Assembly: GCA_963766325.1 (NCBI GenBank)
Contig: CAVXZF010000013.1
Location: 71,653-135,652 of the forward strand
From: an uncultured Actinomycetota bacterium
Lineage (GTDB): Bacteria > Actinomycetota > Actinomycetes > Mycobacteriales > CADCTP01
Direction of reading: 5' to 3'
Length of the DNA stretch: 64,000 nucleotides
The position numbers and the translations under genes are program-made. The notes beneath the pieces are model-generated. The model did no database searches. It was given only the letters and a program-made list of their open reading frames with translations, and was not told the DNA's origin. Positions 44,340 through 59,341 of this stretch are shown here, one piece after another (positions within the stretch are counted from its first letter, which is position 1; each line of letters starts with the position of its first letter).

Positions 44340-44415
44340 GCGCCGCTAGCTCAATTGGCAGAGCAGCGGACTCTTAATCCGCGGGTTCGGGGTTCGAGTC
44401 CCTGGCGGCGCACCA
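44340..44415 (+). tRNA. tRNA-Lys (CUU)
   Basis: Folded by hand. Acceptor GCGCCGC/GCGGCGC. Anticodon arm GCGGA-CTCTTAA-TCCGC. T arm CGGGG-TTCGAGT-CCCTG. ACCA 3' end. 76 nt. Confidence 0.92.
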
Positions 44416-44419
44416 CTCC

Positions 44420-44444
44420 AAACGCCCTGCCGAGCAGGGCGTTT
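44420..44444 (+). terminator. stem-loop terminator after tRNA-Lys
   Basis: AAACGCCCTG-CCGAG-CAGGGCGTTT followed by GTCGTTTCTC. Confidence 0.65.
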
Positions 44445-44527
44445 GTCGTTTCTCAAGATCGCATGGCCGCTCCGCAGCGTGACTTCTGTCCAACGACCTG
44501 TCCAACAACCAGCCGTACGCTGCACTC

Positions 44528-44755
44528 ATGGCTGCGACGAAGACCCTGCGACGGAGCCGGACGAAGGACCTCCAGGGCATCCGCCTTCGCGGCGGCTCGT
44601 ACCAGGTCCGCGTCTACGGAGGCCGCGACCCCGAGACCGGTATGGAGGTCATCCTGACCGGCAGCGCCCAGGACGAGAGCGGCGCGATCCGCCTCCGCGA
44701 CCGGTTCCGCGCCGACAATGGACAACCACCTGGACACGCGCGCCGCCCGCACTGA
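44528..44755 (+). pseudogene. tyrosine integrase N-terminal (arm-binding) remnant
   Basis: GIRLRGGSYQVRVYGGRDPETGMEVILTGSAQDESGAIRLRDRFRA matches only the N-terminal ~60 aa of actinobacterial integrases. The frame then decays, and no catalytic domain is present. Confidence 0.6.
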
Positions 44756-44940
44756 TCCGCGGCAGATCAGGCTCCCGAACGATCCGCACCGGCTCCGGCA
44801 CCAACCACACCCCCGGATCGAACGCCTGTTCGACCCGGTGTGGACCGTACCGCAGCCCGCCAGCGCGGCGCTTGCTACCGGGAGGCGACCTTCGGACTTG
44901 GGGACTGCAGCCGAACTCTCCGGCCGCCGGCGGTGCACTC

Positions 44941-57300: not shown

Positions 57301-57639
57301 CTTGAACCGGATCGGTCCCGCCGAGAGCTCCGACGTCAGCGAGCCGTCCGGGTTCACCCACGTCGAGGACTCCGCCGTCCGCTCCGACAACGCCTCCACC
57401 CGACGCCCCGACAACCGCGCCGCCACCCGCGCCGACGCCACATCCACCGCCTCCGACGCCGCAGCTGGGGCCGGCCCGGCAGCCGGCTGCGGCGCCACAG
57501 GCGCAGCCAACGTCCCGGGAGCAGCCATGGCGCCGGCCACCAACACAGCCGAGACGACCACCGCCACCCGACGCCCCCACCGGGCGGCCCGAACCCGCCC
57601 TCGACGAGGACCAGCCGAACCCACCCAGGCAGCACTCAC
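51392..57639 (-). pseudogene. secreted RHS/YD-repeat protein RHS3, interrupted by two 1-nt frameshifts (or assembly indels)
   Basis: GTG 57639 after GGGAGG, with a signal peptide (RRVAVVVSAVLVAGAMAAPGTLAAP). DNRLRE-like and Ig-like N-terminal domains. YD repeats. Core end MGVRVYNPATGRFLQTDP...DPVNKQDLDGR, then a 121-aa basic tail (51392-51757). The frame changes at about 57027 and about 55048-55075. Confidence 0.8.
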
Positions 57640-58344
57640 CGACGCCTCCCAGCAACCGCAGGACCCAACCCGCCAGTCGCAAAGGCGGCACATCCAGTCC
57701 TAGCACGCACCCAGGCAGCTGGTCACGATCCAAACCTCTCCCCGCTAGAAACCACTCGGACGAGTGGTAGCCGGTCGTAAGGTGCAAAACGAACAGGATG
57801 GCGGTCTCAAGAGCGGAGACTTGACCACGTGGACAGGACCAGATGGCTGTAGGGCGCCTTCCATCCACCACGGCCCCGGTCGTAATCGACAGATGGACCC
57901 GCAGGAGCGCTCGCGACGGCCGAGGCGGCCGACGACGCCCAACAGGCGCTGCTGGCGGCGGGCCGGCGGTTCCTCTGCGGCTGCCAGAGTCGCGCGTCCC
58001 GCGCGCAGCACAGCATGGTCGTGCGGAGCGCAGGCGGCAGAAGAGTGCGTTGCCGCCACGCCGGCCGGCTAGTGACTGAGGCGTTCAAGCACAGTGTGCC
58101 CAGCACTCAGGAGTGTTCCCCAGGCTCGGTGCAAGGCCGGACGCGACCTTGGACCGGGCCGGTCGTGCATCCACAGCGTGTCGACGATGATCAACGATTC
58201 GGTCGGGCTGACGCCGTCCGCGGTCGTCGCCTGGCGCTGTTTACAGATGGGCGACCCGGCGGAACACTGGCCGACCTAGGCGACTGGCTGGGCCAATCGC
58301 ACCGACGCGACGGTCATGGTGCCAGTCGCCACTGGGGGTGCGCC

Positions 58345-58848
58345 GTGTTCGGTAACACCAACACAAGAAGGCTCGGACTGGCCGCGATCGTCGCGGGTGT
58401 GCTTGCCGTGACCGGACAGGCGCCGGCCGCGGCCGAAGGAGCGACCGTCGTGCGGACGGACTTGTCCGCGGCCGCGACCGTGCCGTGCGCGCTCGGCGGG
58501 GTCGGTGAAGAGGTCCTGGTCGGGGGGACCATACATACCGTGGTGCGTCAGAGCACCGATGCCAGCGGGGGGACCCACTTCGTGCTGCGGGCGAACTACG
58601 ACAGCCTCGTGGGGACCGGGCTGACCAGCGGCACCATCTACCACGCCGTTGCGACAGAGGGCACCAGCTCATACAACTTCGATCCGTTCGTCGGGCCTCC
58701 GTACCTGTTCACCCACACCCGGCACGTCCGGTTCGTCGGCCAGGGCCCTGACAACGACTTCAGCATCAGGGAAACCGTGCACGTCACCGTCAACGCCGAG
58801 GGTGAAGTCACGGCCGAGCACATCAGCTTCGAGATCAACTGCGGCTGA
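58345..58848 (+). CDS. small secreted protein, unknown function
   Basis: GTG 58345. Signal peptide RRLGLAAIVAGVLAVTGQAPAAAEG. 167 aa, beta-rich sequence ending ...HISFEINCG. Confidence 0.5.
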   Translation: MFGNTNTRRLGLAAIVAGVLAVTGQAPAAAEGATVVRTDLSAAATVPCALGGVGEEVLVGGTIHTVVRQSTDASGGTHFVLRANYDSLVGTGLTSGTIYHAVATEGTSSYNFDPFVGPPYLFTHTRHVRFVGQGPDNDFSIRETVHVTVNAEGEVTAEHISFEINCG

Positions 58849-59297
58849 CCAGACCCCTACGGACCCGCGACCCCGCCAGCCGAAGCTGATGGGGCCGCGG
58901 CCCGGCGGCTGTCAGCCGGCGGCCGAGCGCCAACCCACAGCGCATCGAGGATGATCCGCGACTCGACCGGGCTAACGGCGAGACCGGCGGGAAGTAGCGC
59001 TCACTGTGTCGAGCAGATCGACCACGGTCGTCGCGACCAGCGGGTCAGTCTACCGGAGAGCGCTCCGGACCATCGTCGCGGCGAGGCTACGCCGGCCGCT
59101 CCGGCTGAGCCGTGTCGGCAGGGCGCATGGGGTGGCCTTGGCGGGCGGAGCTGACCGCGATCGCTGGTGTCCTATGTGGACTTGGTGTCCAGGTGGTTGT
59201 CCATGAACCGGGGTCGGCGCGGGTCGGCAGGGCGGCTGGAGGACGGCCGGGAGCAGCTGGAGTCGCAGGTAGTCGTACTGCGAAGGGGTGAACTTGC

Positions 59298-59341
59298 CTC
59301 TTAATCCGCGGGTTCGGGGTTCGAGTCCCTGGCGGCGCACC
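59298..59341 (+). repeat. att-type direct repeat: 44-nt copy of the tRNA-Lys 3' half
   Basis: CTCTTAATCCGCGGGTTCGGGGTTCGAGTCCCTGGCGGCGCACC is identical to 44371-44414. Confidence 0.9.

Follow-up and report, generated by a model that had tools for sequence, protein, structure and literature searches.

Probable head-to-tail array of decayed integrative islands 3′ of the tRNA-Lys(CUU) gene in an uncultured actinobacterium

Introduction

Actinomycete integrative and conjugative elements (AICEs) of the pSAM2 and SLP1 type belong to actinobacteria of high guanine-plus-cytosine (GC) content and integrate into tRNA genes, the segment of identity between element and target extending from the anticodon loop to the 3′ end of the gene. 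Their int gene adjoins the attachment site attP with its 3′ end facing it, an arrangement also displayed by int_B, one of the integrases described below. As reviewed in PMC5704250 (on Pavlovic 2004 and Bellanger 2011), ICESt1 and ICESt3 of Streptococcus thermophilus, together with a cis-mobilizable element (CIME), illustrate tandem accretion. Here we analyze a 64,000-nt stretch of DNA (the window; C13:71653-135652, where C13 is contig CAVXZF010000013.1) from the 5.5-Mb, 98%-complete assembly of an uncultured actinobacterium, concentrating on the region 3′ of its tRNA-Lys(CUU) gene. An earlier note on this DNA had recognized a single island behind the gene, bounded by a duplication of the tRNA 3′ half.

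Our results indicate that this region is very probably an integration hotspot occupied by a head-to-tail array of decayed integrative islands, ordered as tRNA-Lys(CUU), island A, core 2, island B, core 3, and another integrase relic, the cores being copies of the 3′ part of the tRNA gene. Island A (44415-59297; 14.9 kb) carries an integrase relic, a MacB-type ABC transporter, and the RHS3 locus, and island B (59342 to C12:1319844, on a second contig; 21,864 nt) carries an intact integrase and quinate/shikimate-type catabolic genes. Tandem accretion at a tRNA hotspot is supported, a phenomenon that is already known and ordinary and involves no new mechanism.

Results

Three exact copies of the tRNA-Lys 3′ half

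The integration target is an intact tRNA-Lys(CUU) gene (44340-44415, plus strand), the sole tRNA-Lys gene detected by ARAGORN in the window and in the whole assembly, with a sequence 100% conserved in congeners. Core copy 1, the left attachment site (attL) of island A, occupies 44371-44414 (plus strand); it starts with C32, the 5′-most base of the anticodon loop, and includes the first C of the CCA end as its last base. Core copy 2 (59298-59341, plus strand), which serves island A as right attachment site (attR) and was once the attL of the int_B-bearing element, matches it at 44 of 44 positions, and none of 100 dinucleotide-preserving shuffles of the window reproduced such a match even with up to 3 mismatches allowed, in agreement with the exact repeat reported in the earlier note. 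The bases left of core 2 do not resemble the tRNA 5′ half in an alignment, so core 2 is not part of a second full tRNA gene, one of the 2 circumstances that the note had named as fatal to its reading of the repeat.

A pattern search of the assembly identified a third exact copy, core 3, at C12:1319800-1319843, on the minus strand of contig C12 and in direct orientation with respect to the other 2 cores. It is located beyond the window, 16.8 kb from the C12 end, and with the contigs joined its start is 21,908 nt from that of core 2, the two being separated by 21,864 nt. The earlier statement that no third repeat occurs up to position 64000 holds for the window, but the array continues beyond it. 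No further core, even degenerate, was found in the genome beyond these three (blastn-short).

The join between the contigs rests on a split gene. Contig C13 stops 382 nt past the window end, and its last open reading frame (ORF) matches positions 1-125 of the 249 in Pfam AP_endonuc_2, the N-terminal half of a TIM barrel resembling xylose isomerase; the reverse complement of the C12 end (C12:1336276-1336666) encodes the C-terminal half, with one frameshift. No paralogue of the split gene exists in the genome. Residues 3-263 of the joined protein align without gaps to one uninterrupted frame in each of 4 other genomes (G094, G085, G075, and G018); because these genomes carry the split sequence as one gene, C13 and C12 can be taken to abut. 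With this join, the 3 direct cores delimit at least 2 head-to-tail elements with direct internal att sites: the intact tRNA stands at one end, exact 44-nt direct copies of its 3′ part (cores 2 and 3) at the other, and each island contains an integrase gene adjoining an att site, a relic in A and int_B in B.

Foreign composition and absence from congeners

The genome has a GC content of 74.6% (standard deviation 2.45% in 5-kb windows; 5th percentile 70.3%), compared with 70.1% for island A and 69.4% for island B, a base composition unlike that of the host. The GC profile proposed in the earlier note as a check therefore singles out the islands, but low GC runs on for 20 kb past core 3 (70.7%).

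All 12 congeners keep orn, tRNA-His (42970-43045 here; ARAGORN), the L,D-transpeptidase gene, and tRNA-Lys at 77-85% identity, and none of them has the gene order found here 3′ of tRNA-Lys. The 16.6 kb of island B on C12 are absent from 12 of 12 congeners. Island A as a unit occurs in none of the 12, in which only scattered pieces were matched, among them one of 0.75 kb that is 85% identical in G007; the 20 kb past core 3 likewise have scattered congener matches only. Over the 11-60 kb past tRNA-Lys in G001, G002, G005, G007, and G013, there is no synteny and each genome has different DNA (blastn; tblastx was too noisy at this GC). Presence of the islands is thus variable among related genomes.

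Two unrelated integrase families at one tRNA segment

The first family, here called E-type, is represented next to the tRNA by a relic (44528-44716, plus strand, in the direction of the tRNA) that begins 113 nt past the tRNA and retains only the N-terminal codons 1-63. It is 86% identical (tblastn) to a full-length, 456-amino-acid tyrosine integrase of the congener G005, which directly follows tRNA-Lys in that genome. The relic had been drawn to 44755 in the earlier note; it is real, but homology ends past codon 63, and the remainder of the ORF is unrelated. Residues 44-130 survive in a second E-type relic, to the right of core 3; beyond these 2 relics the genome has no E integrase of the tRNA-Lys type.

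E-type integrases have a consistent geometry, with the integrase following the tRNA in the same direction at 7 loci beside 6 different tRNA genes; distant members stand directly after tRNA-Asn, tRNA-Val, tRNA-Gly (twice), tRNA-Arg, and tRNA-Lys(UUU), always co-directional with the tRNA. Five loci (the 2 in this genome and those of G005, G003, and G007) share one layout, namely, the core, a strong hairpin, CAAGATC, TGTCCA twice with a period of 12, approximately 20 nt, and ATG. At core 1, the terminator-like hairpin, supplied by the element, occupies 44419-44445 (plus strand; fold −21.7 kcal/mol, z-score −6.4), and its counterpart right of core 3 is 92% alike; a strong hairpin follows every core. 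The TGTCCA pair (44487-44504, plus strand; period 12) lies about 25 nt upstream of the integrase start and recurs in the 5 family loci and in a compact metagenomic element (L203, see below). We infer from its position and recurrence that the pair represents putative arm-type integrase-binding sites. Elsewhere in the genome, an E-family integrase at C9:224552-225942, 46% identical, directly follows tRNA-Met in the same orientation and probably marks another island.

The second family is represented by int_B (59357-60805, minus strand; ATG start, with a TTG at 60826), an intact tyrosine integrase gene at the left end of island B, 15 nt past core 2. The protein contains the Pfam Phage_integrase domain and a SAM-like N domain and aligns end to end with its homologues, the basic C-terminal tail included. 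A terminator-like hairpin (59342-59375, plus strand; fold −21.9 kcal/mol, z-score −5.7) holds the int_B stop codon in its loop. The flank between core 2 and int_B is 95% identical over 42 nt to that of G013, a genome of the sister genus in which an intact tRNA-Lys is followed by the same flank and an integrase with 88% amino acid identity; at the nucleotide level, core, flank, and int together are 84% identical over an alignment of 1,487 nt that begins within the tRNA. Among 60 loci in a species-wide scan, 5 homologues (67-87% identical) lie directly beside tRNA-Lys(CUU) in convergent orientation, 4 of them besides G013 at 67-69% identity, including 3 from Micromonospora. Two further homologues (64% and 67%) have tRNA-Lys(CUU) 6-7 kb away, and a clade at 55-58% identity adjoins tRNA-Arg(ACG) with the same geometry. 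Because G013 and the other homologues adjoin tRNA-Lys convergently, int_B appears to be a tRNA-Lys-specific integrase, and it occupies the normal place of its family, with core 2 as its former attL. The integrase was described in the earlier note as intact, with its 3′ end facing the second repeat, which is correct, and as lying outside the island; it sits instead at the usual end of island B.

We considered whether int_B might be a vertically inherited, domesticated gene, given its 84% nucleotide identity to G013 versus 70-81% for neighboring genes, and rejected this as the main reading since close copies are patchily distributed in the genus. The C-terminal tail of int_B (59357-59540) contains a motif, R-x-H-V/M-T-P-x-R-H, conserved across genera, and the DNA encoding the tail forms GGGTGTC-like repeats beside the core; coding sequence and att arm may overlap. 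The 2 unrelated tyrosine integrase families, E-type and int_B, use the same 44-nt segment.

Arrays at tRNA-Lys in other genomes

Stacking at tRNA-Lys is common. In Micromonospora sp. ATCC 39149 (G401), the tRNA and one repeat enclose a lone int_B element of 23 kb. In the metagenome-assembled genome G405, two islands follow the tRNA, the first of 6.2 kb with int_B as a pseudogene and the second of 15.7 kb with int_B intact, and a core closes each of them; its array comprises 3 cores and that of G404 comprises 4. In the congener G003, the tRNA is accompanied by three 3′-half fragments, one of which is followed by an E-type relic. No integrase was found within 3 kb right of the terminal cores of G401, G402, G404, and G405. 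In the Micromonosporaceae arrays (G401, G404, and G405; L171-L191), arm-like repeats left of the last core match the right-hand repeats, with 19 of 21 nt identical in G405, and the pattern of matching repeats flanking the last core recurs at core 3 here.

An E-type element of only 4.6 kb occupies positions 623-5236 of the metagenome contig Ga0126307_10011163 (L203), between 2 tRNA-Lys core fragments, with an E-type integrase at its left end that is 79% identical to that of G005. It is possibly an intact, small model of the E-type family. GCTCAC repeats occur in the flanks of this element, and a convergent integrase is directed toward it from the right.

These arrays, together with core 3, bear on the layout favored in the earlier note, in which the locus would hold a single 15-kb island, the older element would have shrunk to its integrase gene, and the DNA right of int would be ordinary chromosome. 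Consistent with that layout, G013 has no second core within 60 kb of the homologous integrase, and no excisionase, replication, or transfer genes follow int here. We nevertheless regard it as very unlikely, because a third exact direct core stands 21.9 kb on, because the intervening 21.9 kb have a GC content of 69.4%, under the 5th percentile of the genome, and are absent from 12 of 12 congeners, and because int_B-type elements of 16-23 kb lie between 2 cores in G401 and G405. The older element was accordingly not reduced to int: int_B begins a second low-GC island closed by the third repeat. What stands of the tandem accretion proposed earlier is that a newer element pushed an older integrase away from the tRNA, as the flank shared with G013 and the layout of G405 suggest; its extent was underestimated, as the array continues past core 3.

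Mismatched ends and the probable fusion in island B

At the right end of island A, on its attR side, lies the right-end P arm of an E-type element (59113-59297, plus strand), with TGTCCA twice at 59186-59203. Cores 2 and 3 are each preceded on the left by a 185-nt stretch; the two stretches are 99% identical, differing by 1 substitution and a 2-nt indel at the core edge, and both P arms have the TGTCCA pair with a period of 12. The right end of the L203 element is homologous to the P arms in 2 blocks, the repeat region and the 30 nt beside the core, and the P arms are assigned to the E-type family on this basis. Both ends of island A are of the E-type, its integrase breaks off after codon 63, and no mobility domains were detected in it, a CIME-like constitution. 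The left end of island B belongs to the int_B family and its right end to the E-type; past core 3 an E-type left end follows. Most likely, island B is a fusion of an int_B-type and an E-type element from which the shared junction was deleted.

A search for comparable E-family right ends in G395 and G270 recovered a repeat in G270 only and one motif common to both arms, weak support for the assignment. An exact 20-mer containing the P-arm repeat pair (59185-59204) recurs in inverted orientation at the relic breakpoint (44718-44737, plus strand), and the genome contains only 3 copies of it; across 401 genomes of the order, no match outside this genome adjoins a tRNA-Lys core. The inverted copies at 44718 and 59185 were considered as transposon ends and rejected, the right copy lying inside the 185-nt unit that is conserved left of core 3. 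The copy at 44718, where relic homology ends, is a scar of unexplained origin.

Several points weigh against this account of the array. The ends of island B come from different families, and the equation of one island with one element fails for it. The proposed fusion needs at least 4 integrations and 2 deletions. The assignment of arm sites rests on short motifs, and the P arm also has TTGGTGTC in common with the int_B-side flank. The join of C13 and C12 is deduced from a split gene that bears a frameshift near the C12 end. Finally, none of the species representatives compared has an empty tRNA-Lys site; with no unoccupied site in a close relative and congener flanks 77-85% identical, each followed by different DNA, the insertions are reconstructed and not seen as indels.

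The sequence shared by the P arm and the int_B flank also fits the converse arrangement, in which island B would be a complete int_B-type element owning the P arm left of core 3, and island A would be the chimera, an E-type stub fused by deletion to a sister int_B-type island lacking its integrase end. This scenario saves one deletion, the truncation of the relic at 44717 being the fusion point; the 21.9 kb of island B fit the sizes of int_B elements elsewhere, and the 2 int_B islands of G405 share one left-arm type. Against it, the P arm is homologous in 2 blocks to the right end of the 4.6-kb E-type element of L203, and its TGTCCA pair has the period of 12 seen in 5 E-type left ends and in L203, whereas repeats of the int_B family (G401, G404, and G405) have a period of 11. 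We consider a chimeric island A unlikely.

The near-identity of the P arms raises 2 other explanations. Islands A and B might have been joined by accretion in a previous host and have arrived as one composite by a single integration. Composite transfer of tandem elements is documented (PMC5704250), and 3 perfect cores and P arms differing by 1 substitution and one 2-nt indel in 229 nt fit little elapsed time. Excision across cores 1 and 3, however, needs an integrase for both outer ends, and the only intact one, int_B, sits at the inner junction; both E-type integrases are relics, with no other of the tRNA-Lys type in the genome, and no related genome with the composite was found. Joint arrival is, on this evidence, distinctly improbable. 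Alternatively, the repeats could owe their origin to homologous recombination or a segmental duplication around the tRNA gene rather than to site-specific integration. The P arm and core together form a 233-nt block that occurs twice (99% identity) and might have been a substrate for homologous recombination or have arisen from it. Such an origin is extremely improbable: in all 3 copies the edges of the repeat fall precisely at the anticodon loop and at the 3′ end of the tRNA, the same boundaries occur in unrelated genomes, and each copy is abutted by an integrase gene or relic from a family specific for tRNA genes.

Proposed course of integration and decay

Under the favored reading, stepwise accretion with a fused island B, an incoming circular element would bring an attP containing a copy of the tRNA gene from the anticodon loop to the 3′ end, and its tyrosine integrase would cross over at the 5′ edge of the 44-nt segment. 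The element's copy would complete the tRNA gene and provide its own terminator hairpin, and the chromosomal 3′ half that it displaced would persist as a direct repeat marking the element's distal boundary. The block of identity begins exactly at the anticodon loop in every copy and every genome examined. Together with the reported behavior of tRNA-targeting tyrosine integrases (Williams 2002, Nucleic Acids Res 30:866), this leads us to infer a crossover in the anticodon loop; such a position would account for the need of every element to bring the 3′ part of the tRNA in full. Restoration of the tRNA-Lys gene is presumably essential, because the assembly shows just one. Neither tRNA-Lys(UUU) nor tRNA-Glu(UUC) was detected by ARAGORN in this assembly, which is 98% complete; unless a cluster of tRNA genes failed to assemble, lysine is served by tRNA-Lys(CUU) alone.

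Repeated integration at the regenerated tRNA would stack elements with the newest nearest the tRNA, making island A the newest. In the history that we propose, an E-type element would have integrated first, its relic now lying right of core 3, followed by a second E-type element and then by an int_B element. Deletion of the junction between the second and third elements would have produced island B, with 60830-62000 as a candidate scar, and an E-type element related to the second would finally have integrated to form island A and then lost its integrase. Perfect cores and near-identical P arms imply decay by deletion and rearrangement, not by point mutation, and on the scale of neutral divergence the events appear recent. 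Because no transfer, replication, or excisionase genes were found among the scanned ORFs of either island, the array is probably frozen.

A bolder proposal is that the 2 integrase families, with opposite geometry, cross over in the identical tRNA-Lys segment such that their elements interleave in arrays of several actinobacterial families (this genome and L203; G404 and G405 with 3-4 cores), and that either integrase could excise or capture the islands of the other, those without an integrase included. We hold this to be unlikely. If true, the conserved int_B beside tRNA-Lys would be a shared landing-pad recombinase, and the match of arm repeats on both sides of the last core would be functional, not a scar.

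Cargo of the islands

The cargo of island A begins with a MacB/FtsX-type permease gene (45744-48293, minus strand; Pfam FtsX and MacB_PCD) and an ABC ATPase gene (48300-49175, minus strand; Pfam ABC_tran). Copies of the operon (45698-49080) with 86% identity occur in G001 and G003, at loci unrelated to this one, and the operon is a gene set of the genus that is inside an island only here; the G001 copy lies 412 kb from the tRNA-Lys of that genome. Tail-less RHS core fragments paralogous to RHS3 follow (49183-50095, minus strand), with direct repeats D1, D3, and D4 and a weak RHS_repeat match. The RHS3 locus, with a small downstream ORF in a low-GC patch (50961-57693, minus strand; Pfam RHS_repeat and CBM96; GC dip), includes the putatively frame-broken RHS3 gene itself (51392-57693, minus strand). 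The MacB-type transporter and RHS3 are accordingly borne by the island, as the earlier note had it, with Pfam matches to FtsX, MacB_PCD, ABC_tran, and RHS_repeat. Island A also holds a 277-amino-acid ORF without a family match.

Between the RHS fragments and RHS3 lies the 3′ half of a tRNA-Thr(CGU) gene with 137 nt of the flank of the tRNA-Thr locus (50561-50742, minus strand), 95.6% identical to C12:329703-329883, within the region (C12:329672-329883) that holds the intact tRNA-Thr of this genome. The fragment is an attR-type junction and shows that the RHS3 module once stood at the end of a tRNA-Thr island and moved with a piece of chromosome. Because of this fragment and of the MacB operon copies at other loci in 2 congeners, the cargo of island A is a mosaic, not the remains of one tidy element.

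Right of int_B, a region of about 1.2 kb (60830-62000) contains gene fragments, including a GH32-like C-terminal piece at 61152-61505 (scan of ORFs and of GC at third codon positions; no Pfam match), a possible deletion scar inside island B. The cargo proper starts at 62001-64000 (plus strand) with a QuiC-like 3-dehydroshikimate dehydratase (Pfam and NCBIfam) and continues beyond the window with the TIM-barrel enzyme, a shikimate dehydrogenase, parts of a TRAP transporter, and IclR and TetR regulators, followed up to core 3 by an oxidoreductase, a thiamine pyrophosphate (TPP) enzyme, an aldehyde dehydrogenase, and a CoA-transferase. A 352-amino-acid ORF of island B has no match at all. The QuiC-like ORF reads into the TIM-barrel gene in the same frame without a stop, forming a 794-amino-acid open frame.

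Among the scanned main ORFs of both islands, searches against Pfam and NCBIfam returned no Rep, Tra/FtsK, Nudix, Xis, or phage domains. More specifically, these ORFs include no replication initiator or FtsK/SpoIIIE-type transfer gene, as an AICE would have, and no capsid, terminase, portal, or tail Pfam domains, as a prophage would (PHROGs were not searched). As they stand, the islands are neither AICEs nor prophages.

Discussion

Implications for the locus

Around 37 kb, and probably more than 57 kb, 3′ of tRNA-Lys are accreted foreign DNA, and the map of the locus is corrected accordingly. The RHS3 toxin locus, the MacB exporter, and the quinate/shikimate-type cluster should be labeled as island cargo, not as core genes, and 2 contigs of the assembly can now be joined. 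Moreover, 2 actinobacterial integrase families specific for tRNA-Lys(CUU) are defined together with their flanks, which could help island-finding software to split tandem arrays. The locus provides a further example of stacked islands whose mismatched ends record deletion and fusion.

Comparison with known systems

Despite their common taste for tRNA genes, AICEs such as pSAM2 and SLP1 (see also PMC9513070) differ from the present islands, the scanned ORFs of which include no Nudix or Kor gene and none for replication or FtsK-like transfer. Closer parallels come from systems in which elements are stacked. In the ICESt1/CIME system, as here, a new element integrates beside a decayed resident to give the order attL, element 1, internal att, element 2, attR, and decayed members keep their att sites and lose the integrase, which is the CIME-like state of island A (PMC5704250). 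There, however, the target is the 3′ end of a protein gene, fda, the host is one of the Firmicutes, and the partner is conjugative, whereas the present array occupies a tRNA gene of an actinobacterium and no transfer genes were found (PMC5704250).

The Dehalococcoides islands at ssrA resemble the array in forming a stack 3′ of a single small-RNA gene whose 3′ end recurs as a direct repeat at the boundary of each island, and in having an integration module at the left edge and strain-specific cargo, with some islands lacking integrases (PMC3146451). They depend on a serine recombinase and a 20-bp tmRNA repeat, in contrast to the tyrosine integrases and 44-nt tRNA repeat described here (PMC3146451). 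The IME_Sag2603_tRNAlys composite island of Streptococcus agalactiae likewise involves 2 tandem elements at a tRNA-Lys 3′ end with very different tyrosine integrases (PMC5704250), although its host, integrases, and cargo are unrelated to those of the present locus. Its att sites are very different and its excision has been shown experimentally (PMC5704250), whereas in the actinobacterial array a single 44-nt segment of tRNA-Lys(CUU) serves both integrase families.

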